A model generated the notes under the pieces. It was not told where the DNA came from. It saw only the letters and a program-made list of their open reading frames with translations, and searched no databases. Positions 3,979-42,933 of a stretch of 64,000 nt of DNA are shown here, in pieces. The DNA lies in NCBI GenBank assembly GCA_016182555.1, contig JACPGJ010000007.1:128053-192052 (forward strand), read 5' to 3'. This DNA is from Candidatus Kerfeldbacteria bacterium (GTDB lineage: Bacteria > Patescibacteriota > Patescibacteriia > UBA9570 > XYC2-FULL-38-9). The first letter of the stretch is position 1; each line of letters begins with the position of its first letter. Position numbers and translations under genes: made by a program.

Positions 3979-3995
3979 GATAATAGTATTCGAAA

Positions 3996-26033: not shown

Positions 26034-26069
26034 AGAATGAATATATTATACCATATATAGAAAATAATT

Positions 26070-27221: not shown

Positions 27222-27223
27222 AA

Positions 27224-27556
27224 TTATCCAAAAATCTTTTTTCGCAACACACCATCGTCATGCAGATACTGGTCCTGAAACAATTGTCGCTGACGCTCCG
27301 CTTCGGTCGCGCTACATTCTCCGCGTTCTTCTTGCCAATCAATACGATAGAGTAACAGTGCATATAACGCCATCATCGCTGCGAGCACCGCTTCTCCCGC
27401 TTCCTCTATTTTGGTTTGTGGTGCTAGAGTATTCGCCACCTGTTGTAATTGTTCGGTCTTCTCACGCAACGCTGCCCGTACACGCTCTATCTCTTGGTCA
27501 ATAGCAACACCAGAATCCAACGATGCATGTTGATGTTCAATAACAAGATTATCCAT
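27224..27556 (-). CDS. small coiled-coil hypothetical protein, T4SS-cluster-associated
   Basis: 110 aa, helical. Tightly packed between neighbours on the same strand. Confidence 0.35.
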   Translation of the reverse strand: MDNLVIEHQHASLDSGVAIDQEIERVRAALREKTEQLQQVANTLAPQTKIEEAGEAVLAAMMALYALLLYRIDWQEERGECSATEAERQRQLFQDQYLHDDGVLRKKIFG

Positions 27557-28177
27557 TTATTGCCAGGTGATATTATCCACTTTCCAATTCCCGTTGACAT
27601 ACAAAAAATCGACCAATGCGTACTGCGTAAACGCACGCGGATCTTCATTTGTTTTCGTCTCTACACGCCGAGTGCCCACACGTGCAGTGGCGGATTCTTT
27701 AGCCGTATAAGCTGTTAATTCAACTGAATTAGCGGTCGTGGAAATACCGTAATAGTCTTCTGGAATACCATCGGTGTGGTTTTTTTCAATAAACGCGAGG
27801 GATTCTTGCTGGAACTCTTCGGTCATAAATGGTTCCAGGCGAGTAATATTTTCATAATTATTCCGGTTCGAAAAGCTGCCATAACGTTCTACAACAATAC
27901 GCGCCAAACGCATTACCAGTTCTTCTTGTGTCGTCTGTGCCGTTGTGTCCGTATTCGTATTGTCGCCACCGGTGTTGGTATTTGTTCCATCACCGCCCGT
28001 GCCACTATTCACATTTGGTAAAGCATTATTCGTATTCTGCTGTTCATTCGTGTTCTGAGTGTTCGTATTATTATCGTCTGTTGAGGAACGCCGAGCAAAC
28101 AATATACCGGCAACGATTAAGCCAACAACAGCCAGCGCACAGAAAACCAGAATGATGATTTTAAGAGATTTTTGCAT
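27557..28177 (-). CDS. bitopic membrane protein with a C-terminal NTF2-like domain, candidate VirB8-like component
   Basis: 206 aa. N-terminal TM helix (IIILVFCALAVVGLIVAGILFA). Asn/Thr-rich linker. ~120-aa C-terminal domain of VirB8-like size and topology. Assignment is by architecture and position next to VirB4. Confidence 0.35.
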   Translation of the reverse strand: MQKSLKIIILVFCALAVVGLIVAGILFARRSSTDDNNTNTQNTNEQQNTNNALPNVNSGTGGDGTNTNTGGDNTNTDTTAQTTQEELVMRLARIVVERYGSFSNRNNYENITRLEPFMTEEFQQESLAFIEKNHTDGIPEDYYGISTTANSVELTAYTAKESATARVGTRRVETKTNEDPRAFTQYALVDFLYVNGNWKVDNITWQ

Positions 28178-28198
28178 ACATGCTATCTATTATCGCAA

Positions 28199-30109: not shown

Positions 30110-30114
30110 AGTGA

Positions 30115-30846
30115 TTACTGAATAGAGGTATCAATTTGCATCTGCGTCATATCTTCTATCCGACGTTTCTGTTTGGTGACCGGATTATAGGTATTATAAT
30201 ACAACTCAATCAATGCTTGTGTGTCCAAAATTTGTGTTTGCAAACTAATCGATTGTAATCCACTAATGACCACACTCAAACGACGCGCCATTTCTACTTT
30301 ATATTGTGCTAATTGGTCTTCATGGAGCTTCACAATGCTCGCCGGTGAAATAGTTTCCTGCAACCGCGACCAAAAATTTTTCTTTTTATTCGATGTCGGT
30401 GAAAATGGCACTATCACATAAAATTTCTTATCCATAATATCAGCTTCTTCCACTAATTTACTCACGAATGAACGATAAGAAAGCGTTTGTTTGCGCAACA
30501 GCTCATTCTCGTGCTGCCGCGCGAGGAGTTGCAACTTATCTAAATATTTTTCAATGTTGAGCTTTCTGGATTGAATCACCACTTGCAATGGAAAATCAAT
30601 GGTATTTAAAAACGATACATACCCTTGAATAATAGCGGTTTGCTCATCTTCAGATTTCAATGCAAAATTCAAACTCGAGACAAGAATAACTGTCCGCAGT
30701 GTTCCATCTTTCATAATCACAATGTCATCACGAATTTCGGCAAATGGCAGATGCTGCTGTGCAGATGGGAGCTGGCCGTTTTTTTTCTTCACCTGGCGAA
30801 CCGGCCGTTTTTTAATTTGTTTGATTGGTTTATTTTTTTTGCTCAT
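30115..30846 (-). CDS. T4SS-associated protein resembling the extreme N-terminal segment of Gram-positive VirB4 ATPases (possible split virB4, 5' part)
   Basis: 243 aa. Lys-rich N-terminus, then DDIVIMKDGTLRTVILVSSLNFALKSEDEQTAIIQGYVSFLNTIDFPLQVVIQSRKLNIEKYL, a pattern I associate with VirB4 N-termini. TAA stop at 30115-30117, 5 nt before the ATG of the VirB4 ORF, in a different frame. Confidence 0.45.
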   Translation of the reverse strand: MSKKNKPIKQIKKRPVRQVKKKNGQLPSAQQHLPFAEIRDDIVIMKDGTLRTVILVSSLNFALKSEDEQTAIIQGYVSFLNTIDFPLQVVIQSRKLNIEKYLDKLQLLARQHENELLRKQTLSYRSFVSKLVEEADIMDKKFYVIVPFSPTSNKKKNFWSRLQETISPASIVKLHEDQLAQYKVEMARRLSVVISGLQSISLQTQILDTQALIELYYNTYNPVTKQKRRIEDMTQMQIDTSIQ

Positions 30847-30862
30847 ACCTCAACAAATGAAA

Positions 30863-31390
30863 TTAACGTTGCAACAAATTACTCCCTCCGACCGGAGCCG
30901 ATGATGCAGATGCTCCCCCGCCTCCTCCACTCGCCACAACTTTACTGGTTTTTGGTACGTTCTTCCCGGCACGCAATACATCTTCTGTTGCATACATTCC
31001 TCCGGTATCCACCATCAACGACATCGCTGCTAAATGCGATTGCGTAACCTCTTTCTGAATCGACTGCGCTTGCGTTGAGACAGCTGGTGTTGTTGCTTGC
31101 TGTTCTGAATAGGGAATGCGCGCCCAAAGTTTCAACCGTGGTCGGCGTAATGTTTGTACTAAATTTAATACGACATAGTGCATAGATTGCCCATTCACTT
31201 TTGCAAATGCCATTCCCCCGCCAATCATCACCGTTAACACCAGTGCCGGAATAAATAATACCAAAGATAAAATAGAATACCACAAAAATGCCACACCCAG
31301 AGTAATCAAAATAATCACAAATTGACGAGCAGAAATCGGACCAATAATTTTGGATTCAACTTCGATAAATTGTGGTACAACAAATTGCAT
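30863..31390 (-). CDS. small two-TM protein, candidate VirB3/PrgI-like T4SS component
   Basis: 175 aa. Two adjacent TM helices (FVIILITLGVAFLWYSILSLVLFIPALVLTVMIGGGMAF). Located directly upstream of the VirB4-type genes, as VirB3 is in canonical clusters. Confidence 0.4.
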   Translation of the reverse strand: MQFVVPQFIEVESKIIGPISARQFVIILITLGVAFLWYSILSLVLFIPALVLTVMIGGGMAFAKVNGQSMHYVVLNLVQTLRRPRLKLWARIPYSEQQATTPAVSTQAQSIQKEVTQSHLAAMSLMVDTGGMYATEDVLRAGKNVPKTSKVVASGGGGGASASSAPVGGSNLLQR

Positions 31391-31411
31391 ATCGTACGTG
31401 TAGTGTAGCAG

Positions 31412-33403
31412 TTAATAACGAAGCTGGCGATTCAAATCGGAGATGGCATCAAATTCCGCTTGCATGAGCGTGTCTTTTCCGCTTTGCGCCCATTGACGAA
31501 TAATCTCTTCCACTGGCACTGTTTTTTCTAAACTTTCTTTTCCAATAGATAAATACAGTTGGTGCAGTGGACTCGCAAACCACGCTTGCATGCCTTCCGC
31601 TTTTTTCGATAACGATTCTTCTTCCAGTAAAGCCAGTTTATCAATAATATGTTTGGCGGCGTCTTGTGGTTGTTCAGCAAGGCGGCGGAAATCTTCCAGA
31701 TTCATATTTTGTAATTCTTCGAGTGGACCCATCACCACTGGCTGTGCGGCTTCTTGACTGTCATGCGAAAAAGATGCCCCCGATTGTGCTGCAGCAAATT
31801 GTCCCGGATGAACAATATCGGTCATGATTGATTTTTTATTTGTGTTATTCATATCCATTGTATCAAAAATAGGGTTCATATTGGCGAACATATCTTCGAC
31901 CATAATATGAGCACTTGCTTGTTCCTCCGCACGCTTGGCATCATGTTTTTTTTGACGGTCAATCTGTTCTTGCACCATGGCAAGAGTGGGGGCAAATATG
32001 TTTGAAGGTTGCGTTGTCTTCACCCGTTTAGTTTCTTTGCCGCCCTGCAAGGCTTGTTGATACAATTCATCAGCCGTGTGCAAAATGGTATCTACTTGTG
32101 CAGCGGGAATATTCACTCCCCCTTCTTGTGAAGGCCGGGTCAATGCATCGCGTGCCTCTGGTTTGCTGCGCACTCCCCGCAAATACGACACGACAATACT
32201 CAAAAACCGTTTTTCTAATTCCAGCGATTCAAATAACAATTTGTATTCACCTAACACATGTTGGGCGACCGTATGATATTGGTGATCGCTCAACAATAAT
32301 GGAGATTCAGCAACATCAGTAACAGCGGGGGTAGACACAACTGGCAGTGGAGGCACAGGCATTGGTGGGAGTGGTTGGGGTGTTGGAAGCTGAGGCAATG
32401 GGAGTGGCGAAGCTGGCGGCTGCACTGTTTTCTTTGGTGGAGGGGGGAGCGGCATCGGTGGCAGTGGAGGCACAGGAGCAACAGTCTTTTCTTCTCCAAT
32501 AACCACTGGTTGGGCATACATTTTTACCGCTTTCTTTACTTGTTTGGAAATAGGAAGCGGTTTGCCGTGGTCGTCTAACCCCGCCAAAAAACGCATAGCC
32601 TTTAACTCCGGCTCTGGTATGGGAACATGGGTATCTTCGACCACCCCCATATCAAAAAGATGCACCGTTCCGGTGACCGGGTCATCAAAATAAAACGTCG
32701 ATTCAGAACCTTCCGGTGTTTTAGAGGAGAGTGATAATTTATGGTCAAACTTTAACAAATGTTCAATGCGTTCTTTATCATCAGCGGACAGGGCTTGTAC
32801 ATTTTTACTGGAATTCATGTACTCCACAATCAACAACGGTTCTGGTTTACGGGTCGCTAAAAATTCTTTCCAATCGTGAAGCCAGCTGGCGATACTTGGT
32901 TCCACTGTCGTTGTCCCAATGGTGATATCTGTTTTACCAATATGTGCAGTCGACCGTGACAATGCTTCACGATATTTCTGCTTTACCACATCACGCTCAC
33001 CATAATCATCAATAATCAACAACCGACGTTTCAATTTGCGCAAAATCTCTTCGAAGTCTTTTTTAAATAGCCCTTCTCCATGGCGTGAAAGAACATTTTC
33101 CACTTCCGTTGGCGCTAAATCACCAATCACAAACCATTTCGCTTCGGCCATCACCGTTTCTAATTCTGCATAGAGACCCGGTTGTTGTTTGTCTAGCTCC
33201 GGATACTTCGTGCTGATAAGCTTTTGAATACTATTCACCAAATGAAATACTGTATCATTATCGTTATCGTCCAACGCCGTATTCAAAGCATGAATGGCTT
33301 TATTGATTCCATCTGGTGTATTCAATTCAAAAGATTCCAGTGGTCGGGCAATGGGTGGTACGGCTGGTGCTGTTGGCATATTTTTTTGTATTGGTGTATC
33401 CAT
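31412..33403 (-). CDS. T4SS-cluster hypothetical protein with a central proline-rich tract
   Basis: 663 aa. No clear TM helix. Pro-rich region (PPLPPMPLPPPPKKTVQPPASPLPLPQLPTPQPLPPMPVPPLPV). Confidence 0.4.
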   Translation of the reverse strand: MDTPIQKNMPTAPAVPPIARPLESFELNTPDGINKAIHALNTALDDNDNDTVFHLVNSIQKLISTKYPELDKQQPGLYAELETVMAEAKWFVIGDLAPTEVENVLSRHGEGLFKKDFEEILRKLKRRLLIIDDYGERDVVKQKYREALSRSTAHIGKTDITIGTTTVEPSIASWLHDWKEFLATRKPEPLLIVEYMNSSKNVQALSADDKERIEHLLKFDHKLSLSSKTPEGSESTFYFDDPVTGTVHLFDMGVVEDTHVPIPEPELKAMRFLAGLDDHGKPLPISKQVKKAVKMYAQPVVIGEEKTVAPVPPLPPMPLPPPPKKTVQPPASPLPLPQLPTPQPLPPMPVPPLPVVSTPAVTDVAESPLLLSDHQYHTVAQHVLGEYKLLFESLELEKRFLSIVVSYLRGVRSKPEARDALTRPSQEGGVNIPAAQVDTILHTADELYQQALQGGKETKRVKTTQPSNIFAPTLAMVQEQIDRQKKHDAKRAEEQASAHIMVEDMFANMNPIFDTMDMNNTNKKSIMTDIVHPGQFAAAQSGASFSHDSQEAAQPVVMGPLEELQNMNLEDFRRLAEQPQDAAKHIIDKLALLEEESLSKKAEGMQAWFASPLHQLYLSIGKESLEKTVPVEEIIRQWAQSGKDTLMQAEFDAISDLNRQLRY

Positions 33404-33446
33404 AGGTTCAATGGCGCATGTAAATTATGGTTGTTGTCTACGGCGT

Positions 33447-36400
33447 TTATTCCTCGTCACTTATAATATTATTTTTTTTGTTTTTATTGGATTGAGTGAA
33501 GACTCCATCACGTACCGCGCGAATAAATTCTTCCGGTACACCTAAATTTTTTAAATTCTCTGGATCGGATGCATCGCTATGTTTAGCAATATAGTCACGA
33601 ATACGCTGACGCGTTAATTCTTTCAACCACCGGAAACCCGTTTCGTAGGAATAATCGTGGCCGTAGCGAATCAATTTCTGAATATCGCTTGGAGCGAGTG
33701 TTGTATCATTACCTTCTACGACACCAAAAACGGTATTGGCCACATTGCTTGCCTGCCGCCTGTTAATACCACCAGCTTGTAGAGCCGCCCGTTCATCCTT
33801 CCCGCGCGGACGCATCACTCCAGCAGCGTTTGAAACGTATGCCGCATCCAAATCAATATTGTCGTCAGTAAATTTTGCCACTAACTTCTGCATATAACGC
33901 ATAGATTCTTGATCACTCATTCCTAACTCCTCCTTTAAATGGTGGGTACGGAATGCTTCCATGGCGCCGTGTCCGGACCCTGCATGCGCGCGGGCATCTG
34001 CATTATCACTTTGACGCAAATACTGGTCAAAACCGAACCATAATAACCCGCCCGTTTCTTGCAAGCGTTTGTGCACCGCTTCGGCCAAATATCGATTTTT
34101 TTCTTTTTTGGCACGAGTTAAATAACCCATCAATTCTGTACCATCATCAATATTCTGCACTTGCTGGTACTGTTCATCTACCAATTTTTTGTGTTCAGGG
34201 TTACTCGTGTGTCGGCGTGCTTCCAATGTTGCAGACTCAGCCGTTGCGGCAACCAGTTGGCGTTCGCGTTCTGATAATTCATTATCTAAAATACTTCCTG
34301 CATTGTCGAAGAAATCAGCCGTTGCCGGATCAATAACATGCACGTCATGTTGATCATCATTACGTCGAACATACTCGTTTTTCACTTTATTCAATGAGCT
34401 ATTTAATGCTCCTGTTAAACCTAAACGTAGTGCCCCTGGCGCATAGGAGCCATGTTGCTTAAATAATTTTTTAGAATTAATACTTCCCTCACGCAACGCC
34501 TGTTGCACACGTTCAATTTGAGCTTGAAGAGCCGTCTTATCCTCCGGGGTAGTCGCTGCGGCTAAATCTGTTTTCAATTGTGCAATAAGATCTTGAATAA
34601 ACCGACGAACTGGCTCAATAGTCGTATCCAATCTGGTATCTGCGTCTGACATGACACCAGATCGCATATTTAATAAACTCCTTGTGTGCTCATCTTGTGA
34701 ACGATAATTTTTATTATAATCTTCCAAACGTTTCTTTTGATCATAGAGCCCCTCATCCAACTTATACATATCTGCTCCAAAACGGCGCTCTAACTCTGCA
34801 TCAATATCCGCCTCTGAAGGGGGTGGTGTTCCTGCTCTTTGCGCTGCAGCAGTTAATTCTGCGGCGAGTTCTGGTCTGGCTTTCTGTTTATTTTTTCTAA
34901 TCTTTCTTCTCATCAAAAGACCAAAAGAATTTTCTGCTTTATCGGCTAACCGTTTATATGTTCGTAGACTTAATGGATCATAATCTTCATATACCTTTAC
35001 GGCATCATCAGATGTCACCCCAATGCCAATGCCGGTCAAATTATCCATACTGGCAAATGCACCGTTCATATAGCCATGGCCCATAATATCACGATCCGCC
35101 ATCCCTCTCGCCCTCTTCTTAGATTCATTCAAAAAGACTTCCTGTTTTCGTTCGCTGGCTTTAGAAACGCCCGTTTTCAAATTCTTCCACGCTTTGCCAG
35201 GGTCGGAAAGCACGGTATTGGTAAAATGAGAAAAGTTATCGAGTGGTTGTAACACGTTGGAAGCAAATCGCGATGCACCACGTGCTCTAGCGGAACGATC
35301 GTCATCACTGGCAATGGCATCCAGCCGGCCACGGGCGCTTGACAATGCACGACCAGCCAGATATTGCTGATTGAGACGATAGCTGGCTTGACGAGCTGCA
35401 CCCAATAACTTCCCCGCTCCTTGGCGCACTTGGCTAAGCTGTTTCGTAAATTCTGTGGCCATCTCGTTCACCATTTTCAAAGACGCGGCTAACATCAACA
35501 TCATGACAATGTAATTCACAATGGTGGCCGGCGTTACGGCCCGCAACTGGCCGGTTTCTGGTGATTTCGAATACGTAGCAGGTAGCTGGGTTTGCACCTT
35601 TTCGTCAAACGCTCCATTTAAGGGTGACCCATTGTACCCATACGCCGTATCGGCCTGTGTGCCATACGCAATAGAAAGAGACAACCATAAGAAAAATGTA
35701 ATGAGGGGGCCAACGATGACATAACGCCCAAACATATCCCACCATTTTTGCGCAATACGGCTTTGGGTTTGGGGTAAAATGCGCCCAATCCAGGCAAGCG
35801 GAGAAATGGATATGAGAAACCAGAGCATGACGATGCGGAAAATGAGCGTCACCACATAGACCGTAAGAATAATGGAAAGCCCGGTTAACATGAAACCCGC
35901 AGCGGCAAAACCAGCAATCAAAAACGGTAACCCCTTAAGATCACTAACTACGGAATCTGAATCTCCTAAAGATAAATCCAATATTGATGCCGGGTTCAAA
36001 ACACCCAAAATATTTCGCCCAATCGCATTGCTAAACGAGCCGCCAAACGTGGCCATGGCAACTGTCGCCGCATCGGTGAATACGCCACAAATCGTACGGG
36101 AAAAATTGATTAAAATAGCCGCAATAATAAAATCAGGTAGCGTTTTTTTCCACGAATATTTTTCAATACGCAACACCGTACCTAAAGCGATGATGATAAG
36201 AATCATGGAGAAAAAAATGTTGCAAACATCACGCACCAGCTTCCATGACGTTACGACACCGGGGACATTCACAAATGCGGAGCGCGCATCTGCGCCGATG
36301 AATACGGATTGCCAGACATCGCCGTAGGGGTAGGTAATAACAATATCTAAAATAAAAGCGAGAATCATAGCAATAATCCCATTGATCATAATGGGAACAT

Positions 36401-36671
36401 AGTAAATAAATGCAAGAATCACGCGTGCCACTGAACCAATAATGCCGCTTGACTGCGCATATACCACCGGCACTCCGTTAAACGACATGATTATACCGGC
36501 AATACTGAGGCCAACGATACACACCCCGCCCCAATAAGCGGTTTTTTTGAAAATTCTGCGTGTTTTTTGTTGAGAGAGATAAAAAAATACCCGTACTTTT
36601 GGAAAATACTGGACTGTTTTGCTGCCTATCGTGCGGCAAAAATTGATAATACGCTGGTAAAACCGATTCAT
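33447..36671 (-). CDS. VirB6/TrbL-like polytopic T4SS channel protein with a large C-terminal coiled-coil domain
   Basis: 1074 aa. First ~400 aa contain at least 7 TM helices in a TrbL/VirB6-like arrangement. About 650 aa of charged, helical, TM-free sequence follows. Resembles Gram-positive PrgH/TcpH-type VirB6 proteins. Confidence 0.5.
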   Translation of the reverse strand: MNRFYQRIINFCRTIGSKTVQYFPKVRVFFYLSQQKTRRIFKKTAYWGGVCIVGLSIAGIIMSFNGVPVVYAQSSGIIGSVARVILAFIYYVPIMINGIIAMILAFILDIVITYPYGDVWQSVFIGADARSAFVNVPGVVTSWKLVRDVCNIFFSMILIIIALGTVLRIEKYSWKKTLPDFIIAAILINFSRTICGVFTDAATVAMATFGGSFSNAIGRNILGVLNPASILDLSLGDSDSVVSDLKGLPFLIAGFAAAGFMLTGLSIILTVYVVTLIFRIVMLWFLISISPLAWIGRILPQTQSRIAQKWWDMFGRYVIVGPLITFFLWLSLSIAYGTQADTAYGYNGSPLNGAFDEKVQTQLPATYSKSPETGQLRAVTPATIVNYIVMMLMLAASLKMVNEMATEFTKQLSQVRQGAGKLLGAARQASYRLNQQYLAGRALSSARGRLDAIASDDDRSARARGASRFASNVLQPLDNFSHFTNTVLSDPGKAWKNLKTGVSKASERKQEVFLNESKKRARGMADRDIMGHGYMNGAFASMDNLTGIGIGVTSDDAVKVYEDYDPLSLRTYKRLADKAENSFGLLMRRKIRKNKQKARPELAAELTAAAQRAGTPPPSEADIDAELERRFGADMYKLDEGLYDQKKRLEDYNKNYRSQDEHTRSLLNMRSGVMSDADTRLDTTIEPVRRFIQDLIAQLKTDLAAATTPEDKTALQAQIERVQQALREGSINSKKLFKQHGSYAPGALRLGLTGALNSSLNKVKNEYVRRNDDQHDVHVIDPATADFFDNAGSILDNELSERERQLVAATAESATLEARRHTSNPEHKKLVDEQYQQVQNIDDGTELMGYLTRAKKEKNRYLAEAVHKRLQETGGLLWFGFDQYLRQSDNADARAHAGSGHGAMEAFRTHHLKEELGMSDQESMRYMQKLVAKFTDDNIDLDAAYVSNAAGVMRPRGKDERAALQAGGINRRQASNVANTVFGVVEGNDTTLAPSDIQKLIRYGHDYSYETGFRWLKELTRQRIRDYIAKHSDASDPENLKNLGVPEEFIRAVRDGVFTQSNKNKKNNIISDEE

Positions 36672-36737: not shown

Positions 36738-36792
36738 TATTCTTGAGTTTTTTGCCACATCAGATTTGGGGAAACCTGTTTAAATGATGTAT

Positions 36793-36830
36793 TTTTGACA
36801 TATTTGGAAGGGTGTGCACAACACATGCGC
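36793..36830 (+). repeat. copy A of a conserved ~40-nt element (TTTTTGRCATATTTGGARGGGYGTGCACARCAMATRC) with an internal TGTGCACA palindrome
   Basis: tttttgacatatttggaagggtgtgcacaacacatgcgc. Aligns almost base-for-base with copies at 41149 and 41927, all in the same orientation. Confidence 0.7.
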
Positions 36831-37003
36831 AAAAATGGAAAACATGGAAAACCACCATGCAGTTGACAGCAAAAACAGTCTTAAGTATTATTATCGTAGA
36901 AGCATGCAGTAACAACTTACGGGACACCCTTAGTGTTCCCTTGGCCTTGCTGAGGCTTAAGCTGAGGATACATGTGGCCTGTAAGACGCTGCTTCAATAA
37001 AAT

Positions 37004-37033
37004 ACTCAATCCAGAACGGTTGAGTTTTTTGTT
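37004..37033 (+). terminator. weak candidate rho-independent terminator (plus-strand orientation)
   Basis: ACTCAA-tccagaacgg-TTGAGT followed by TTTTTTGTTT. Only a 6-bp stem with a 10-nt loop. Confidence 0.25.
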
Positions 37034-37047
37034 TACCTAAAATTTTT

Positions 37048-37692
37048 CTATAAAAAAAGCTGCTTTCCTTTCACTATTTTATTCTGCAAAATAGCATAAA
37101 ATTCTTTGCCGAGCGATTTATTGTTCACATACGCTGCTAACGCACCGGTAATCCAATCGGCGATTTGTATATTCACGTGTTGATCAGATTCGAGCATCTT
37201 CACAGCAATACGTGATCCGAGCGGTATACGTGAAAGTATTCTCGCATAAATAAATTTACAAAATTCTTGCTGATGCATATCTTTTAAATGACGTTTGTCA
37301 CAATAAATGTAGAGTTCTTTTGTTTCTATAGGAAAATATAAATCGATATTTTGCGTCACGATTTCCGCATAAAGATATCCACTTTTCAGCTGTCGTTTAT
37401 ACCAAAATTCCTGTGGGATATCTTTGTGAGAAACAATGGTATAGCAAATACGAATATCTAAATCCGCAATGTGCTGTATAGTTTTTAATCGTAATTTTTG
37501 ACTAATCTCACAATCATTGAACTTGATCTCCATTTTATAACGTCTATTTATTGGAAAATGTTTGCGTTGCCATGTATGAAAACTTTTGGCGGTTTGTTTT
37601 GGATTTGTTGTCGAAAAAGAACCAATAACAAAATATGGCTGTTGGGGATTTTTTGTTAATTGACCACTTTCATCTAAAAATATTGCGTACAT
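37048..37692 (-). CDS. DUF3800 family protein
   Basis: 214 aa. N-terminus MYAIFLDESGQL matches the Y-x-DESG start characteristic of DUF3800 (RNase H-like fold) proteins. Lies within an AT-rich segment. Confidence 0.55.
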   Translation of the reverse strand: MYAIFLDESGQLTKNPQQPYFVIGSFSTTNPKQTAKSFHTWQRKHFPINRRYKMEIKFNDCEISQKLRLKTIQHIADLDIRICYTIVSHKDIPQEFWYKRQLKSGYLYAEIVTQNIDLYFPIETKELYIYCDKRHLKDMHQQEFCKFIYARILSRIPLGSRIAVKMLESDQHVNIQIADWITGALAAYVNNKSLGKEFYAILQNKIVKGKQLFL

Positions 37693-37813
37693 AAAATAAA
37701 AACACGGCCTAGGGAAGGCGTGTCCAACGCTGCTATTTTACCATGATGTACGCTTGAGTCAAACACACTATTAAAAAGAAAAACCTCTAGTGCGCTGATT
37801 CAATAAACCGGCT

Positions 37814-38182
37814 TCACATTTTGAAGAGTACCCACTTTTCGTTTTTCTTTTTGAATGGTGGGAAGAGGCTGAGTACAAACGTTATCGGAATCATGAGGTA
37901 GTAATATTGCCATTCAACGTTTATTTGATACGCCACAATAACCGCACCAATCAATACGCAGATGATGAAATAATTCAATCTATTTTTGTATAACTCTTCG
38001 CGAATGCTCAGTATGTCGCTATTTTTACCATAAAAAGGAACAAGGAGAATAACCATCCAGAAACACGCTTGCAATGCCGTAAACAGATCACTATTATTTT
38101 TTTTATAGATAAAAATACATACGAGCAAATAGATGTTTGCGGCAATAAAACGCACTTTATTTCGTTGAATATTTTTCCACAT
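37814..38182 (-). CDS. small integral membrane protein (about 3 TM), immunity-protein-like
   Basis: 122 aa, AT-rich codon usage, three hydrophobic helices, last gene of the small-membrane-protein array. Confidence 0.35.
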   Translation of the reverse strand: MWKNIQRNKVRFIAANIYLLVCIFIYKKNNSDLFTALQACFWMVILLVPFYGKNSDILSIREELYKNRLNYFIICVLIGAVIVAYQINVEWQYYYLMIPITFVLSLFPPFKKKNEKWVLFKM

Positions 38183-38495
38183 ATCTTTTTTTTATTTCTT
38201 CAGCCAATGATGGGACTCTGCATTTTGAAAGAAAAAAACAGAAACCAATATATATAGCCACTAAGCGCAACCATGGATATTGTGGCAACAATACATGCAA
38301 TGCTTTTGCATACATGACCGCTATACCGACTCCAACGAATATCGCATACAACAAGAATTTTCTATGAAGTATAAAATATGCATGACGATTACTAAAGTGA
38401 TATATAAACCAACGTGTCTCATCTACCGCGAGCAAGAGTCCGACAATAACCATAATGATAGAAGCAATGGAGAAAATCATATATAACAATTTCAA
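38157..38495 (-). CDS. small integral membrane protein (about 3 TM), immunity-protein-like
   Basis: 112 aa, three hydrophobic helices, lysine-rich C-terminus. Confidence 0.35.
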   Translation of the reverse strand: MKLLYMIFSIASIIMVIVGLLLAVDETRWFIYHFSNRHAYFILHRKFLLYAIFVGVGIAVMYAKALHVLLPQYPWLRLVAIYIGFCFFLSKCRVPSLAEEIKKRYVEKYSTK

Positions 38496-38704
38496 ATACC
38501 CTGCTTATTTATTGAATTCATGCGTTTCTTTTTTTTCGATCGCCGTTTTAAATACTCATCAACTTTGCTTGAAATCCAAATAGTTGAGGATATCGTTAAA
38601 AATGTTTCCCAGTATGGTTGATCAGATGGTCTATGTAGCAGTGTTACCGCTACTGTCAGAATGGCTGAAATTATTAACAGCCATATTACATCCGCATATT
38701 TCAT
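38492..38704 (-). CDS. small membrane protein, paralog 4 of a tandem family with a conserved P-x-x-x-(Y/F)W(E/D)xFL core and a Lys-rich tail
   Basis: About 70 aa from the internal Met (MKYADVIWLLIISAILTVAVTLLHRPSDQPYWETFLTISSTIWISSK..KRRSKKKKR). The ORF track's longer form starts at 38788 and overlaps the upstream paralog. Confidence 0.4.
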   Translation of the reverse strand: MKYADVIWLLIISAILTVAVTLLHRPSDQPYWETFLTISSTIWISSKVDEYLKRRSKKKKRMNSINKQGI

Positions 38705-38712
38705 AATACAGA

Positions 38713-38910
38713 CTATTTCTTTTTGAAAAAATAATACAATTGCTGAGTAACGATCAATATAACCCCAAGAAAAATAAAATGCAGCCACCTATCCCAAAAA
38801 GAGATATTTGAACGTGGTTGGAATGTATATCGTGCAAATGCTAGTAACCCACTACTGGATAAAAACAGTAATAGCCAAAGTAAAAATTGATTCTTTTTAC
38901 TTTTCAACAT
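38713..38910 (-). CDS. small membrane protein, paralog 3 of the tandem family
   Basis: 65 aa: ..LLAFARYTFQPRSNISFWDRWLHFIFLGVILIV..FFKKK. Confidence 0.4.
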   Translation of the reverse strand: MLKSKKNQFLLWLLLFLSSSGLLAFARYTFQPRSNISFWDRWLHFIFLGVILIVTQQLYYFFKKK

Positions 38911-38982
38911 AGCGGGTAACGCTTAAACTTTCCATTTTAATATCTGCTTTAAAACTTCCAGAACCATCTCGCCACCACTATC

Positions 38983-39186
38983 TTATTTTGTATCTCTTTT
39001 CTTTTTACGAACTTTTTTTGACCGCTCAGAGAGAATCAACGTAATAGTTATCGCGGCAAAACCAATAAGAAACCGCTGTAAATAACTTGACCCTTCTGGT
39101 TGAATATAGGTAAGAACTCCGGCCAATATCGCACTGATTACAGCAATCAATAGAATGTCAGCAATTCGTTTATTTATATCCACCAT
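38983..39186 (-). CDS. small membrane protein, paralog 2 of the tandem family
   Basis: 67 aa: ..AVISAILAGVLTYIQPEGSSYLQRFLIGFAAITITLILSERSKKVRKKKRDTK. Confidence 0.45.
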   Translation of the reverse strand: MVDINKRIADILLIAVISAILAGVLTYIQPEGSSYLQRFLIGFAAITITLILSERSKKVRKKKRDTK

Positions 39187-39243
39187 TTTAATATCTGCTT
39201 CACAAGAACTTTAAATCAGGATCGACAGTAACAGATTCATATT

Positions 39244-39444
39244 TTACTTCTTCTTTTGCTGGTTTCTCTTAGAACGAATAAATGAAAGGACTAATACCAA
39301 TACAACACTCCCCCAAGTCAATAGAAATCTTTCCCAATAATTTGAACCCTCAGGTTTATCTATATATGTAGCAACTCCTGCCATGAATGCAGCGACCACT
39401 CCAGCAAGAATAGCCTCACTCAGGAATCCGATCATACCCACCAT
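39244..39444 (-). CDS. small membrane protein, paralog 1 of the tandem family
   Basis: About 67 aa from the internal Met: MVGMIGFLSEAILAGVVAAFMAGVATYIDKPEGSNYWERFLLTWGSVVLVLVLSFIRSKRNQQKKK. Clearly alignable with paralog 2. The track's longer ORF (to 39588) would overlap the upstream secreted-protein gene. Confidence 0.45.
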   Translation of the reverse strand: MVGMIGFLSEAILAGVVAAFMAGVATYIDKPEGSNYWERFLLTWGSVVLVLVLSFIRSKRNQQKKK

Positions 39445-40505
39445 TTTAATAAGAACTTTGTCGTGTTTACAATCTGTTGTTTTATCCAATACTGTGCAGA
39501 ATTTGGTAAAACTTTGAACACCCCCATCGTGGCACCTGATATAGCGCATCCCCAAGCAGCTTGTTCTAATTTTTCTTTCCAATACCAATCATTTCTTTGT
39601 ATCGCCCACCGTACTGCATCAATACCAATACCACCAATAACCGTATTGACACAAGCACGAGCAGCTAAAACAATAGCAGTAGTTACTGCTGCTGGAATCC
39701 AAAAAGGATCTGCAGTAACAGGATATGAAATTCCTTCCACATTATGGAGAATATGTTGAGTAAGTGTTTGACCATCTGTGGTGAAATAAGTTTCAACATC
39801 ATTCCCAGCAGCATCTTTTGCCCAGGGAGTGGCAACCATGGCGATCGGTTCATTGTTTTCATCTACAACCACTGCTCCTCCATCTTCAGTCAGTTCAATG
39901 TGGCCGCCAGATGGCACGGTGACGGTATACGCATATTCTGTTGGTGCTTCGGGGTTATCAATAACCGTAAGCATACGCACACCACCTTCTACGTCCGCTT
40001 GTACGGCGTTTGCTGAACCATCTTTTGCCGGGTATGCAACAACACCGTCTGCGATTCTTTTTGCGTTTTTCGCTTCATCAGCATTGGGCAAGCCAATCTC
40101 AATCGTTGTGCCGTCTTCCGTACCCAATGTTACTCCATCTTCTGGATTTTTCGGAATATCAACAATTGTACCATCTTCTGTGGAAGTGATAATCGCTGAA
40201 TCTACATCGCGATCGACTACAATATCTTCAGAAGTTTCGAGTACACCAGAAAGACTTTCCAATGCCTCTTTCACCTCCGTTTTCGATACGTTCATTGAAT
40301 GATCCGTATCCGCTTGTTCGAGAACGGTAATTTCCGGCTCTGTTTCTAATGCTGTTGAATCTACCGGTTCCACAACAGCAGGTGATTCGTTTGTACCTTC
40401 CGCGCTCAATTCTTGCGCACGCACCAACTGCGGTGCAACGCTCATAAAAACAAATGAAAACACCATCGTACTCGAAAGCACTTTTGAGAAGACGCCCGTC
40501 CTCAT
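39432..40505 (-). CDS. secreted protein: signal peptide, acidic Thr/Glu/Asp-rich region, and a hydrophobic Trp/Gly-rich C-terminal domain (candidate membrane-active toxin or bacteriocin-like domain)
   Basis: 357 aa. Signal peptide (MVFSFVFMSVAPQLVRAQE). C-terminal ~110 aa (AVTTAIVLAARACVNTVIGGIGIDAVRWAIQRNDWYWKEKLEQAAWGCAISGATMGVFKVLPNSAQYWIKQQIVNTTKFLLKWWV). Immediately followed by the small membrane protein array. Confidence 0.45.
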   Translation of the reverse strand: MRTGVFSKVLSSTMVFSFVFMSVAPQLVRAQELSAEGTNESPAVVEPVDSTALETEPEITVLEQADTDHSMNVSKTEVKEALESLSGVLETSEDIVVDRDVDSAIITSTEDGTIVDIPKNPEDGVTLGTEDGTTIEIGLPNADEAKNAKRIADGVVAYPAKDGSANAVQADVEGGVRMLTVIDNPEAPTEYAYTVTVPSGGHIELTEDGGAVVVDENNEPIAMVATPWAKDAAGNDVETYFTTDGQTLTQHILHNVEGISYPVTADPFWIPAAVTTAIVLAARACVNTVIGGIGIDAVRWAIQRNDWYWKEKLEQAAWGCAISGATMGVFKVLPNSAQYWIKQQIVNTTKFLLKWWV

Positions 40506-40769
40506 AATTTTAAAATAAATGATTAAGTTACTTCTAGTGTATCACGTGCGTCCACCGCGTCAATATGCGACTTATCCACAATTATTTTATTATTTTTGTA
40601 GCCGTCTCTATTTCGCCAATTAACGAAATGCTTTTAACATTAACTCTTTTTCGACTTTTTTCTTAAAGATTTTTCCACCGCAGAGCCGTCGCTTACTGAT
40701 TCGTGAAATACAGCATTAACTCTTGTAAGAAATAATACCGTAGGATAAACTATGTGTTGACGCCCCTGT

Positions 40770-41366
40770 ATGGCCACAGCAGCCAGCAGGACGTTTTTAT
40801 TTTTCTTATTATTAACAAGTAACGCTATGTACATCATGTACGTTGATGTGACGCACCTGTTACAAGAAATTCCAGTCACTTTATTTTCGGTTGCTATTCA
40901 TAAAGCGGCATATTGGCAACAATACCCTTCTCAAAATCCATACGAAATTGCCTATATATTTCTCATTGAACAATATCAAAAATTTCTCCAAGCAAAAGAT
41001 GCACTAGGAATTTGTATTATTGATCCACGAGAGGGACAAGTACACAAGTCTTTTATTGGCCTTGAGCTTGATCAGATTCACCACTTAATGCAATGGGAAA
41101 AAAGTGATTCCTGGCATCCATGCCCAAATGTTATCGAGCGCGTGCTATTTTTTGGCATATTTGGAGGGGTGTGCACAGCAAATACACATGGGCTTGACTG
41201 TTTTTTCAATCATGATATACTATATATATCACCACGAAGAGCGCCCTATACGGTTCCGTCCGCATGGGGTTCTTTTCTTTTTGTGCTCATTTTTTCTGCT
41301 AGATCACTCACAAAAGAGATGTATTTTGAATCAAACTTTTTTAACAGCCCAGAATATTTTCGTTGA
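40770..41366 (+). pseudogene. low-confidence ORF or degenerate gene remnant spanning repeat copy B
   Basis: 198-aa ORF with no recognisable N-terminal motif. Overlaps the NYN gene on the opposite strand by about 120 nt and contains the conserved repeat. Region is otherwise an ~740-nt gap. Any resemblance to a DUF3800 C-terminal region is weak. Confidence 0.15.
41149..41190 (+). repeat. copy B of the conserved ~40-nt element
   Basis: tttttggcatatttggaggggtgtgcacagcaaatacacatg, followed by ggcttgac, which also follows copy C. Confidence 0.7.
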
Positions 41367-41764
41367 TTTGGAATAAGTAGTTTTTTTAATTTTTCCTGTT
41401 CAATGAAATATTGAACCAAACAGTGAAAATCACCATCTCCAGTAATGATGACTGCTTGATGATAATTCTGATATTCAATCATGGCGTGCAGCACCAATTC
41501 TGCATCACAATTCCCTTTTGTCTTGCCATCTTTATACATGAGTGTTGGTTTGAAAATACAGATGTATCCTGATTCTTGCAAATAGTGATAGAGCTGCTGA
41601 TGACCAGGAATATAACCAATAAACAAAAAAGCTTTCTGCACGGAATATTTTTCTTTTAAGTAAATTCGAAAACGAGCAAAATGTAACTTCCATCCTAATG
41701 CCCGAATACTCAAATTAAGATTTTGACTATCAATGAAGGCATAATTGTTTTCTTTTGTTAGCAT
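41246..41764 (-). CDS. NYN-domain (LabA/Zc3h12a-like PIN-fold) putative ribonuclease
   Basis: 172 aa. N-terminal AFIDSQNLNLSI (the DG-x-NL start of NYN domains). Downstream GNCDAELVLHAMIE and AVIITGDGDFHCLV, corresponding to the NYN SGDSDF acidic motif. Confidence 0.55.
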   Translation of the reverse strand: MLTKENNYAFIDSQNLNLSIRALGWKLHFARFRIYLKEKYSVQKAFLFIGYIPGHQQLYHYLQESGYICIFKPTLMYKDGKTKGNCDAELVLHAMIEYQNYHQAVIITGDGDFHCLVQYFIEQEKLKKLLIPNQRKYSGLLKKFDSKYISFVSDLAEKMSTKRKEPHADGTV

Positions 41765-41926
41765 AGAACTATTTTTAAATATAAAACGCCCACAGAAAAA
41801 TAAGGGCGTCCATCAATATAATACATGAAACAGTTACTGAGTGCAAGGATGCACTTTCATGCTATCTACATAAAAAAGGTGGTGAAGAGTATTAAAATAA
41901 TTGCGTCAATTCCGTCAATTTCTCGG

Positions 41927-41968
41927 TTTTTGGCATATTTGGAGGGGCGTGCACAGCACATGCACGGA
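41927..41968 (+). repeat. copy C of the conserved ~40-nt element
   Basis: tttttggcatatttggaggggcgtgcacagcacatgcacgga, followed by agcttgac. About 200 nt upstream of the Asp/Cys-repeat gene. Confidence 0.7.
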
Positions 41969-42163
41969 AGAGCTTGACAAAATGGATGTTTTGGGAGTAG
42001 GCTTGGGGTAGATTTGTGCAAAGTGTGCCTTGAAAGAGGTGTGCTTTGCACTTGAAAATATGCCCGTGTTTTTATTCGCGTCGTTTGCAAAGCCAGCCTA
42101 TGGTTGGTTTGGCAATGCAGCGACGCGGCTACAATCAATGGCCGGGACTTCAAACCGGCCGGT

Positions 42164-42169
42164 TAGGAG
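42164..42169 (+). promoter_or_regulatory. Shine-Dalgarno sequence (AGGAGG) for the Asp/Cys-repeat gene
   Basis: AGGAGG 5 nt upstream of the ATG at 42175 (MRNWLLVLTALLGG signal peptide). Confidence 0.6.
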
Positions 42170-42174
42170 GGGTT

Positions 42175-42933
42175 ATGCGGAACTGGCTGTTGGTGCTCAC
42201 CGCCCTCCTTGGGGGGTTGGTGAGCGGTGGTTTTTCGTCGGCGCTCGCGGCCGACGTAGACGGCGACGGGTTTTACGGAACCACAGAGTACTGTGGTTCC
42301 GATGACCAAAACTATTATTATTGGTGTGACTGCAACGACGACGACCCCGCCATCAATCCCGAGGCGACGGAAGATTGCGACGGCGTCGACAACGACTGCG
42401 ACGGCCAAGTCGACGAGGCCGGTGATGACGGTGATCTGGACGGCTTCACAGATGATCCGTGTAACGATACGGACGACTGCGATGACACGAATCCGTCCAT
42501 GAACCCCGGCGCGGTCGAATTCTGCGACAACGCGGATAACGATTGTGATGGGACCATCGATGAAGGGGTTACCGTAAAGTACTACGTGGACGCAGACGGA
42601 GATGGGGCTGGTGATGCGAACACCGACCCCGTAGAAGCCTGCGATGGGTATGGTCCCGCAGGCTATTCAATCGGAGGTGACTGCAACGATAGCAACTCCG
42701 ACATCCGTCCAGGAACTGTCGAAACAGTTTGCGACGACGGCATCGACAACAACTGCGATGGGACTATCGATGAAGACACCGAATACTGCCTGGATGAGGA
42801 CGAAGGTGGCCTCGGGGAGGTGATTCCTGGGGGATGTTCTACATCTCCCGGCGCGCCACCCACCCGAGGGTGGGGAATCCTCGGCCTCGTCGTCGGCATC
42901 CTCGTCGGCTTTCGCCGCAGCAGCACGCGCTGA
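42175..42933 (+). CDS. secreted Asp/Cys-rich repeat protein (MopE-like putative metal/calcium-binding CxDxDCDG repeats) with C-terminal TM anchor
   Basis: Signal peptide. Repeated motifs (CDCNDDDPAINPEATEDCDGVDNDCDGQVDE; CDDTNPSMNPGAVEFCDNADNDCDGTIDE; CNDSNSDIRPGTVETVCDDGIDNNCDGTIDE). C-terminal hydrophobic segment GWGILGLVVGILVGF plus basic tail. The ORF track start at 42046 is rejected for the SD-preceded Met at 42175. Confidence 0.55.
   Translation: MRNWLLVLTALLGGLVSGGFSSALAADVDGDGFYGTTEYCGSDDQNYYYWCDCNDDDPAINPEATEDCDGVDNDCDGQVDEAGDDGDLDGFTDDPCNDTDDCDDTNPSMNPGAVEFCDNADNDCDGTIDEGVTVKYYVDADGDGAGDANTDPVEACDGYGPAGYSIGGDCNDSNSDIRPGTVETVCDDGIDNNCDGTIDEDTEYCLDEDEGGLGEVIPGGCSTSPGAPPTRGWGILGLVVGILVGFRRSSTR

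Follow-up and report, generated by a model that had tools for sequence, protein, structure and literature searches.

Organization of the island

We analyzed a 64,000-nt stretch of DNA (hereafter, the window) from an uncultured Candidatus Kerfeldbacteria bacterium (Patescibacteria, CPR). The region of interest is an accessory island of ~6 kb, which adjoins a type IV secretion-like operon, itself surrounded by housekeeping genes such as RecG, RadA, and KsgA. Three direct copies (A, B, and C) of a 39-nt element, all on the plus strand, are located in a 5.2-kb part of the island, separated by 4357 and 778 nt with genes in between; the GC content between copies A and C is 34-41%, compared with ~44% in the flanks. 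The features of the island are as follows, in order along the window:

36792..36830, plus strand: copy A of the 39-nt element, TTTTTGACATATTTGGAAGGGTGTGCACAACACATGCGC
36863..36891, plus strand: promoter of the DUF3800-V RNA, TTGACA-17-TATTAT, 11/12 consensus matches
36898..36996, plus strand: DUF3800-V small RNA, Rfam RF02964, 62.4 bits vs. a gathering score of 37.4
37004..37031, plus strand: intrinsic terminator of the DUF3800-V RNA, stem-loop plus T-run
37048..37692, minus strand: DUF3800 gene, 214 aa, Pfam PF12686 (E 1.5e-13), PADLOC PDC-M04A
37814..40505, minus strand: small membrane-protein genes and a gene for a 357-aa secreted protein, GC 34-41%
40536..40580, minus strand: promoter TTGACG-16-TACACT with a DnaA box
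40827..41150, plus strand: remnant of a second, different DUF3800-type gene
41149..41187, plus strand: copy B
41194..41221, plus strand: promoter after copy B, TTGACT-16-TG-TATACT, 10/12 plus extended -10, 6-nt gap to the copy
41228..41283, plus strand: predicted short RNA of ~55 nt, 16-bp hairpin followed by UUUUU, with inferred ends
41246..41764, minus strand: NYN/LabA-like nuclease gene, 172 aa, Pfam PF01936, PADLOC NYN
41927..41965, plus strand: copy C
41974..42003, plus strand: putative promoter after copy C, TTGACA-18-TAGGCT, -35 perfect and -10 weak, 8-nt gap to the copy
42008..42174, plus strand: structured leader or RNA, 16-bp hairpin at 42016-42051 plus further stems
42175..42933, plus strand: gene for a MopE-like Cys/Asp-rich secreted protein

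The segment following copy A (unit A) is a DUF3800-V locus, that is, an RNA with its own promoter and terminator and a convergent DUF3800 (RNase H-like) gene, the ORF of which the RNA does not overlap. The run of membrane-protein genes lies upstream of the DUF3800 gene, on the same strand. The DUF3800-V motif (RF02964) was described by Weinberg et al. in 2017 (PMC5737381); in all, there are 11 conserved, structured DUF3800-associated RNA motifs. The DUF3800 proteins are RNase H-like and also occur in retron type VII and Cas12a2-linked systems (PMC7736814, PMC10910872).

To the left of copy B, the DUF3800-type remnant has residues ~8-88 deleted and is missing the C-terminal 45-75 aa, the region of the QxxD motif. 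According to three independent protein alignments, the homology to DUF3800-type proteins stops at position 41150, at most 2 nt from the left edge of copy B, and copy B does not restore the truncated gene. The left edge of copy B is a real rearrangement breakpoint, at which a DUF3800 gene was truncated. The sequence following the promoter of unit B is predicted to fold into a stable structure (-21.6 kcal/mol, z -3.5 vs. shuffles) and covers the final ~38 nt of the NYN ORF on the opposite strand, in antisense; we infer that it is expressed as a short RNA, with the start predicted from the promoter. The structure in unit C (-59 kcal/mol, z -4.1 vs. shuffles) would be a transcribed leader of the MopE-like gene, likewise with a predicted start. 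This leader had no match in Rfam, and a search with RF02964 downstream of copies B and C produced no match at E values up to 5.

A repeated element with sharp borders

The original prediction of three same-orientation copies was borne out. Over the 39 nt, copies A and B are 85% identical, A and C 87%, and B and C 92%, with 32 of the 39 alignment columns invariant, and the similarity ends abruptly at both borders, beyond which the flanks are unrelated. The 21-nt left half of the element, with up to three mismatches allowed, matched the three known sites alone, and none of 100 dinucleotide shuffles yielded any match. A hidden Markov model built from the three copies recovered them with E values of 1e-12, the next best hit having an E value of 0.13, and detected no fourth copy in ~75 kb, comprising the window and ~10.6 kb of extra flanking sequence. 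No further copy was found in the public collections scanned, and the element is no generic repeat scattered inside genes. No relative near enough for a comparison of element conservation was present in public data, and with a copy number of three, conservation is not separable from recent duplication.

Several details of the element required adjustment. Copy A starts at 36792, 1 base before the start given earlier. The 8-bp palindrome proposed to lie in the core, TGTGCACA, is exact in copies A and B, but copy C reads CGTGCACA, so that only the 6-bp palindrome GTGCAC, which occurs 18 times in the window, is common to all three copies. Similarly, the GGAGGGG tract is present in copies B and C, but copy A has GGAAGGG. 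The string gcttgac, noticed after copies B and C, is indeed there and corresponds to a -35 hexamer (TTGACT and TTGACA, respectively); copy A is followed by TTGACA as well. We did not detect any stable or shared fold of the element (z scores of -0.2, -2.2, and +0.6 for the three copies, with differing folds).

Predicted promoters downstream of the three copies

Downstream of every copy, the same strand carries TTGAC(A/T), at distances of 32, 6, and 8 nt for copies A, B, and C, respectively. This motif occurs 45 times in 128 kb, both strands included, so that the probability of finding it within 40 nt of all three copies is ~3e-6. Among the five promoter matches of at least 10/12 in the region from 36.4 to 42.3 kb, two are those after copies A and B, which score as sigma-70-like promoters with 11/12 and with 10/12 plus TG, respectively. 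The promoter after copy A sets the start exactly at position 1 of the RF02964 model. The end of copy A is 68 nt from the first base of the DUF3800-V RNA, and the element lies outside the RNA model. The 32-nt spacer between copy A and the -35 contains a tandem ATGGAAAAC duplication. Upstream of the copies, there is no plus-strand promoter that would transcribe through the element. The gap between the element and the -35 shows no constant phase or distance; if a single activator geometry applied, this would be unusual.

Promoter modules at other DUF3800-V loci

We compared unit A with DUF3800-V loci of other Patescibacteria. The RNA is convergent on the DUF3800 gene in 77 of 80 such loci, and the -35/-10/start geometry of unit A was the same in all 20 loci inspected, whereas the 39-nt element is absent from all 80. 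In 12 of 74 loci, the region upstream of the RNA (positions -170 to -21) has a direct copy at most 3 kb away. These duplicated modules are genome-specific and unrelated in sequence to the 39-nt element of the window. The modules at the loci denoted L005, L007, L015, and L045 are direct copies of 43-94 nt with 85-98% identity, and each heads both a DUF3800-V RNA and a neighboring cassette, in which a small RNA and an NYN or DUF3800 gene converge. Indeed, the extra module copy often heads a second small-RNA/nuclease cassette. In L007, a second RNA with a terminator, which converges on an NYN-like gene, is likewise driven by the 83-nt module (87% identical, DnaA box and -35 included). In L005, a 43-nt copy of the module precedes TTGACA-17-TATAAT and an RNA of ~80 nt that converges on an NYN-like gene. 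In L045, the duplicated module spans 93 nt and takes in the entire promoter; it drives a second RNA, which converges on a second gene of the DUF3800 type. L005 and L007 come from related genomes and have the module in common, but differ in the side of the DUF3800 cassette on which the NYN cassette lies. A DnaA box is part of most of the modules at other loci, and the entire core promoter is often included as well, whereas the copies in the window share only the region upstream of the -35, plus the -35 itself in B and C.

The DnaA box is the only enriched motif upstream of the DUF3800-V RNAs. An exact box is present in 30 of 75 promoters (40%), mostly at positions -55 to -45, compared with a background of 0.0018 per 90 nt. 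For DUF3800-V promoters, having a regulator site here is the norm, judging from motif occurrence, and the 39-nt element occupies the place of the DnaA box in these homologous promoters. The element itself is not a DnaA box: its best 9-mers, GTGTGCACA and CTGTGCACA, agree with TTATCCACA in 6 of 9 positions, whereas a DnaA box may deviate in one position at most. The published description of the DUF3800-V motif (PMC5737381) does not include promoter modules, module duplication, or DnaA boxes, and we found no paper linking DUF3800 RNAs with DnaA. The comparison adds three features to the picture of DUF3800-V RNAs, namely, that these RNAs are independent genes with consensus promoters, that 40% of the promoters carry a DnaA box, and that promoter modules have been repeatedly duplicated alongside cassette shuffling.

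Function and origin of the element

Taken together, the sequence comparisons favor, on balance, the following interpretation: a promoter module was duplicated, and the element is its upstream half, which probably acts as an operator and has also been used as a recombination junction. Among the options raised in the original prediction, a shared operator/promoter module fits best, as TTGAC(A/T) follows every copy on the same strand after 6-32 nt. Site-specific recombination was not supported, and the 5' end of a small RNA family came close but was wrong in detail, given that copies A and B lie upstream of the DUF3800-V RNA and of another, predicted short RNA. Under this interpretation, the element would head three tandem rightward transcription units, A, B, and C, and serve as an operator or activator site to which one regulatory protein binds, possibly as a dimer on the GTGCAC/TGTGCACA palindrome. 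Such a regulator would switch the small RNAs of the adjacent RNA/nuclease cassettes together, with the DnaA box holding the equivalent promoter position in other Patescibacteria. The copies would have arisen by duplication and shuffling of cassettes along with the promoter module, in which case the edge of the module would double as a recombination junction; the truncation of the DUF3800 gene at copy B is an example. With only three copies, and no other in a further ~70 kb of this genome, a genome-wide regulon is not evident. On its own, the element is a lineage-specific cis-element. If it is an operator, the DUF3800-V RNA and the neighboring NYN-associated RNA would be co-regulated.

The element resembles sigma-70 upstream operators, class I activator sites, and DnaA boxes in its fixed orientation and its location directly upstream of the -35, and possibly in its short dyad, which is imperfect in copy C. 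Unlike typical operators, it is found at varying distances from the -35 (6, 8, and 32 nt) and is nearly identical over 39 nt, which is more conservation than an operator needs.

The alternative to be taken most seriously, although we consider it unlikely, is that the element is a recombination scar or homology block left by recent segmental duplications of the promoter region and devoid of a regulatory role, the copies being at most short homologies for the gain, loss, or swap of cassettes. The sharpness of both borders, the position of the left edge of copy B within 2 nt of the truncation point of the DUF3800-type gene, the direct orientation of all copies, and the low GC content of the A-C region (34-41% vs. 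44% elsewhere) are all compatible with such an origin, as are the opposite placements of the NYN cassette in L005 and L007 and the genome-specific sequences of the modules. However, a scar leaves unexplained both the -35 hexamer just downstream of all three copies and the 85-92% identity of the copies amid unrelated surroundings, and the duplicated modules of other lineages retain the DnaA box and core promoter. This explanation is also not exclusive of the promoter-module interpretation, with which it is compatible.

Site-specific recombination is considerably less probable. In this scenario, A, B, and C would be the attL, hybrid, and attR cores produced when two small elements (4.36 and 0.78 kb), possibly mobilized in trans, integrated in tandem at a single chromosomal site. 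Like att sites and attC, the copies are direct repeats, here of att-like length, that delimit cassette-like segments of deviant composition, and a type IV secretion-like operon is next door. Unlike in such systems, there is no attC-type hairpin, and the cassettes differ in orientation. Neither the window nor the flanking contigs yielded an integrase, recombinase, or transposase, and no tRNA or gene 3' end was identified as a conserved integration target. Furthermore, the gene in which the segment left of copy B ends is truncated, and the repeat does not complete it; the secretion operon lies among housekeeping genes; and the analogous repeats of other genomes hold whole promoters. Hence the earlier suggestion of an attachment or recombination site is not supported in its site-specific form. 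An integron cassette array was rejected as well, given the lack of a consistent or stable fold and of an IntI integrase.

We assign a low probability, lower still than that of tandem integration, to a regulator site acting on the minus strand, that is, on the leftward gene for a 1074-aa VirB6-like protein of the secretion operon (36671) and the NYN gene (41764). The intergenic regions that contain copies A and C are indeed divergent, with minus-strand start codons 120 and 162 nt away, respectively, and a minus-strand promoter, GTGGCA-18-TG-TATAAT, is found 34 nt to the left of copy A. To the left of copy B, however, there is neither a gene nor a promoter in the leftward direction, but the coding remnant of a plus-strand pseudogene, and the leftward genes lie far off, at differing distances. 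Moreover, the modules at the analogous loci contain the -35 of the small-RNA promoter, which indicates that the module is oriented with the RNA.

Finally, it is highly improbable that a family of transcripts begins with the element, as had been suggested, or that the element is another dispersed repeat (CRISPR-like, MITE, or REP). It is near small-RNA genes and has a short palindrome, but RNA A starts 68 nt further downstream according to both the Rfam model and the -10, the element precedes the predicted starts in the other units as well with no upstream plus-strand promoter and no conserved or stable fold, the spacing is irregular, and there are no inverted terminal copies or target duplications. 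CRISPR repeats require regular short spacers, as opposed to 4357 and 778 nt with genes between, and terminal repeats of an IS or MITE were rejected because the copies are exclusively direct, with unrelated flanks and no inverted ends or target-site duplication.

The promoter-module interpretation can be extended, speculatively and with rather long odds, to the island as a whole. The island would then be a modular array of a DUF3800-V RNA/DUF3800 cassette and an unnamed RNA/NYN cassette, defense- or toxin-antitoxin-like, recombining at promoter modules, with the RNA promoters wired to one cellular sensor, which would be DnaA in most lineages and a different regulator, acting via the 39-nt element, here. 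If so, the orphan DUF3800 RNA motifs would gain a regulatory logic, in which RNA output is coupled to replication or initiator status. In type I toxin-antitoxin loci, such as txpA/RatA of Bacillus subtilis, convergent antisense RNAs overlap at the 3' ends, and the toxins are small membrane proteins. The cassettes of the island are similar to these loci in that a small RNA and a gene converge, and the predicted RNA after copy B overlaps the end of the NYN ORF, but differ in that the proteins are predicted nucleases (NYN and RNase H-like DUF3800).

The MopE-like gene of unit C has a GC content of 58%, compared with 44% for the genome. The only exact DnaA box in the window, at 40572-40580, abuts the -35 of the minus-strand promoter TTGACG-16-TACACT.

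A repeated element with three copies

The original prediction that one sequence recurs three times in the same orientation was borne out. The copies of this 39-nt element, A, B and C, all lie on the same strand, are 85–92% identical in pairwise comparison and share 32 invariant columns out of 39.

36792-36830 (+): copy A, TTTTTGACATATTTGGAAGGGTGTGCACAACACATGCGC
41149-41187 (+): copy B, TTTTTGGCATATTTGGAGGGGTGTGCACAGCAAATACAC
41927-41965 (+): copy C, TTTTTGGCATATTTGGAGGGGCGTGCACAGCACATGCAC

Several details of that prediction required revision: copy A starts at 36792, a different position from the one first assigned to it; the palindrome TGTGCACA proposed for the core is exact in copies A and B, but copy C retains only GTGCAC; and the GGAGGGG tract reads GGAAGGG in copy A. 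In a MAFFT alignment of the three copies with 150-nt flanks, the borders of the element are abrupt on both sides. A hidden Markov model built from the copies recovered them at E ~1e-12 in the window extended by ~10.6 kb of flanking sequence from the same genome (~10 kb on the right and 0.6 kb on the left), with no fourth copy and nothing else at E <0.1, and the shuffled window contained zero matches to the left half of the element with 3 mismatches allowed. An exact-pattern scan with CATATTTGGARGGGNGTGCAC gave 0 matches in species-representative genomes, metagenome contigs and viral contigs. The left half, TTTGRCATATTTGGARGG, produced 120 single exact matches in metagenomes, which we attribute to chance, given that the right half agrees at 10 of 19 positions at most (mode 4–6); the one viral-contig match obtained with the right half was unrelated.

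The island and flanking proteins have no close relatives in public data, the best homologs being 33–50% identical (50% for the DUF3800 protein, 33% for the adjacent 1074-aa protein), and, other than on the source contig, the window's proteins were found only on Logan assemblies of run SRR12113422, which are 100% identical. A literature search returned no record of the 39-nt element, which is a lineage-specific case of a familiar kind, the promoter-associated cis-element.

Each copy lies upstream of a −35 hexamer

The transcription units that follow the three copies (units A, B and C) comprise the following features.

starting 32 nt past copy A (+): promoter of unit A, TTGACA-17-TATTAT, 11/12, the best of the region
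starting 7 nt past the −10 of unit A (+): DUF3800-V RNA (RF02964), full-length, 62.4 bits versus a gathering score of 37.4
37004-37031 (+): intrinsic terminator of the DUF3800-V RNA
37048-37692 (−): DUF3800 gene (Pfam E 1.5e-13; PADLOC candidate PDC-M04A), on which the RNA converges
starting 6 nt past copy B (+): promoter of unit B, TTGACT-16-TG-TATACT, 10/12 with an extended −10
end at ~41283 (+): predicted transcript of unit B, 16-bp hairpin followed by UUUUU, −21.6 kcal/mol, z −3.5
41246-41764 (−): NYN/LabA-like nuclease gene
8 nt past copy C (+): putative promoter of unit C, TTGACA with a weak −10 (TAGGCT)
after the unit C promoter (+): predicted leader of ~165 nt, strongly structured (z −4.1), running into the gene for a MopE-like secreted protein

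The small RNA of unit A is thus DUF3800-V, whose link to DUF3800 genes is already known (PMC5737381); DUF3800 itself has an RNase H-like fold and is found both with Cas12a2 and in type VII retrons (PMC7736814, PMC10910872). A PDB sequence search with the DUF3800 protein of the window yielded no significant match. The unit B transcript is predicted to end at ~41283 and therefore would be antisense to the last ~38 nt of the NYN gene. The predicted RNAs following copies B and C had no match in Rfam, even at relaxed thresholds.

TTGAC[AT] occurs only 45 times in 128 kb (both strands), and the probability that all three copies would have a same-strand TTGAC[AT] within 40 nt downstream is ~3e-6, or ~4e-5 at the island's own rate. 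The greater distance between copy A and its −35, compared with copies B and C, is in large part due to a tandem duplication, ATGGAAAAC ATGGAAAAC, at 36836-36853 (+) within the 32-nt spacer. Two other readings of the element were rejected: a sigma-54 promoter (TGGCAT-N-TTGG) was ruled out by inspection, there being no −12 GC, and no −24 GG in copy A, and in a small-ORF reading (GGAGG followed by ATG), the ATG lies at least 14 nt from GGAGG and the resulting peptides (5, 13 and 90 aa) are unrelated.

Duplicated promoter modules recur at other DUF3800-V loci

Using a profile of DUF3800 homologs, we assembled 80 Patescibacteria loci for comparison (designated by L numbers and described in their own local coordinates). 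DUF3800-V RNA is convergent just past the DUF3800 gene in 77 of the 80, and the 20 loci inspected each have a TTGAC −35 and a −10 that put the start at position 1 of the RNA model. The 80 loci lack the 39-nt element and yielded no shared k-mers, and its 7-mers are neither present nor enriched in them. In 12 of 74 loci, the region upstream of DUF3800-V (−170 to −21) is repeated at least once more within 3 kb, in direct orientation, and direct repeats flank the gene and RNA module in 15 of 73.

Four loci illustrate this arrangement. In L007, an 83-nt module, with copies 87% identical, extends partway into the −35. One of the copies drives DUF3800-V. The other lies past the 5′ end of the DUF3800 gene, points away from it and has its own −10, from which it drives a short RNA with a terminator that converges on an NYN-like gene. 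L005 shares this module sequence, with its NYN cassette on the opposite side and the second module copy followed by TTGACA-17-TATAAT and a ~80-nt terminator RNA abutting the NYN stop codon. In L045, a 93-nt module that includes the whole promoter, with copies 88% identical and a third, partial copy further on, drives both DUF3800-V and a second RNA, the latter convergent on a second DUF3800-type gene (3985-4815; N-terminal "IFLDESGD"; apparently frameshifted), which thus has a ~90-nt terminator RNA of its own. Finally, L015 contains three direct ~94-nt modules (1253-1346, 2238-2331 and 2878-2997) ahead of three successive genes, namely, DUF3800-like, NYN (55–75% identical to that of the window) and DUF3800. 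Given these analogous duplicated modules in L007, L005, L045 and L015, the pattern in the window is a case of a recurrent design, in which tandem units of module, small RNA and convergent nuclease gene have a genome-specific promoter module in common. No record of promoter-module duplication at DUF3800-V loci, or of NYN/small-RNA companion cassettes, was found in the literature search.

The companion RNAs of L005, L007 and L045 likewise had no Rfam match, relaxed thresholds included. NYN/LabA-like genes with a convergent short terminator RNA and a consensus promoter are found at L007 2198-2860, L005 3368-4101 and 41194-41764 of the window; these RNAs adjoin DUF3800/DUF3800-V cassettes and differ in sequence. 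They may represent an undescribed RNA/nuclease pairing. The L015 modules also carry a DnaA box and the start of a short conserved ORF (MSKLLKQINKCRELEKKIKKNLKELGF), and the NYN gene there appears frameshifted.

In six further loci (L022, L031, L036, L052, L056 and L081; ~2880-2990, 3500-5750), direct repeats of 49–179 nt flank the DUF3800 and RNA module. Several of these repeats hold a terminator hairpin and a promoter (e.g., TTGAAG-17-TAAAAT), and the second copy precedes another gene whose N-terminal sequence (first ~30 residues, by eye) looks like that of defense-island genes of the restriction or Bro/KilA type. Neighboring defense-island genes thus seem to share promoter modules. L081 additionally contains a 22–25-nt perfect palindromic element four times around the DUF3800 module (1239-1265, 1703-1727, 2530-2561 and 3922-3955), which may be REP-like or a terminator. 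In L004, a tRNA gene (3839-3910, −) lies directly upstream of the DUF3800-V promoter, with the −35 coming after the tRNA 3′ end.

DnaA boxes upstream of DUF3800-V

The only motif enriched upstream of DUF3800-V RNAs is the DnaA box. An exact box (TTATCCACA/TGTGGATAA, either orientation) is present within 90 nt of the start in 30 of 75 DUF3800-V promoters (36 with one mismatch allowed), compared with a background of 8 exact boxes in 409 kb of those loci, or 0.0018 per 90 nt. Nearly all are at −55 to −45, just upstream of the −35 (e.g., L007 ~3846-3854, L022 and L056). These findings suggest that DUF3800-V RNA could be controlled by DnaA; no paper tying DUF3800 RNAs to DnaA, and no record of DnaA boxes at DUF3800-V promoters, emerged from the literature search.

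The DUF3800-V promoter of the window has no DnaA box and instead is preceded by the 32-nt spacer and the 39-nt element. The sole exact box in the 64-kb window lies at 40572-40580, directly next to the −35 of a promoter on the minus strand.

40536-40563 (−): promoter, TTGACG-16-TG-TACACT, ahead of a gene run (40505 to 37048) that ends with DUF3800

The link between this box and the gene run is only suggestive, because one exact box is about the chance expectation. More speculatively, TGTGCACA might be interpreted as a pair of overlapping, inverted DnaA-box halves ("TnCACA"; 6 of 9 positions). That modular RNA/nuclease cassettes are wired to DnaA or another sensor is a broader and doubtful proposition, and one worth following.

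A probable promoter module or a possible rearrangement scar

We lean, with modest confidence, toward the view that the element forms the upstream half of a promoter module that has been duplicated and contains the binding site for one regulator. The analysis establishes how the copies are placed and oriented with respect to the −35 hexamers, that RNA A is DUF3800-V and that duplicated modules recur; binding of a protein, the start sites of units B and C, and co-regulation are inferred. Such duplication would place the predicted site of this regulator before units A, B and C, and joint expression of the three units, above all of the two small RNAs, would follow from its action. Two features, the weak −10 that follows copy C and the unequal spacing (32 versus 6 and 8 nt), count against a simple activator with a single geometry.

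A less probable explanation, albeit one compatible with a promoter module, is that cassette duplication and shuffling left the copies behind as scars or blocks of homology. It draws on the direct orientation of the copies, the base composition (34–41% GC between copies A and C versus ~44% elsewhere), a difference in cassette order between L005 and L007, and a breakpoint at copy B. An ORF enters this copy (40827-41150, +; a 179-aa protein, P0121, in public annotation); it is a pseudogene, what is left of a second DUF3800-type gene distinct from the one at 37048-37692. Its full-length relatives (200–265 aa), identified by an exhaustive HMMER search, have an N-terminal DESG motif and a C-terminal "IQLAD" (QxxD) motif (motifs as described in PMC7736814). 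In tblastn comparisons with three relatives, every alignment stops at nt 41150 ("...NVIERVLF"), where the relatives go on with "SESxxTIGIQLADL", so that the gene loses its QxxD region precisely at copy B; the remnant also lacks residues ~8–88, with the N-terminal "MYIMYVD" joined to residue ~88. Because homology stops there and the missing C-terminus was not found anywhere in the window, the left edge of copy B (T-run 41148-41153) is a rearrangement junction. Homologs of this second type of DUF3800 gene were sought in the other loci, and none was detected.

Site-specific att sites appear improbable, with no recombinase in the window or the flanking contigs and no target gene or hairpin, and it is marginally less probable still that the element acts on leftward genes, given that copy B has none. 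Least credible is that the element belongs to an RNA or to another repeat class: the copies have no stable or common fold (z −0.2, −2.2 and +0.6) and are located upstream of the predicted starts, and the element is, for these reasons, DNA-level rather than part of the RNAs.

Chromosomal setting

The surroundings of the copies are chromosomal: genes nearby encode tRNAs, RecG, RadA and a sulfate permease, and ClpB-like, DnaG, KsgA and TsaD are listed as further neighbors in the gene tables. The copies themselves belong to a small accessory island; adjacent features include the following.

23021-36671 (−): type IV secretion-like operon (T4SS pilin, DsbA-like thioredoxin, VirB4/TraG-type ATPase, PrgI, and 663-aa and 1074-aa membrane proteins)
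42175-42933 (+): gene after copy C for a MopE-like (PF11617) Cys/Asp-rich secreted protein, with internal DNA repeats (D1, D3)

At 58% GC in a 44% GC genome, the MopE-like gene was probably acquired horizontally. The 5′ end of the secretion-like operon, which sits amid housekeeping genes, is 120 nt to the left of copy A, and its first gene encodes the 1074-aa VirB6-like protein; NCBI labels this protein "MFS transporter," and its relatives are named TrbL/VirB6 or have the corresponding Pfam matches. Between DUF3800 and the gene for a secreted 357-aa protein, five or six small membrane-protein genes without a family match are arranged in a row (37814-39440, −); their products have lysine-rich C-termini, and at least two are paralogs by eye ("TYIQPEGSSYLQRFL" / "TYIDKPEGSNYWERFL").
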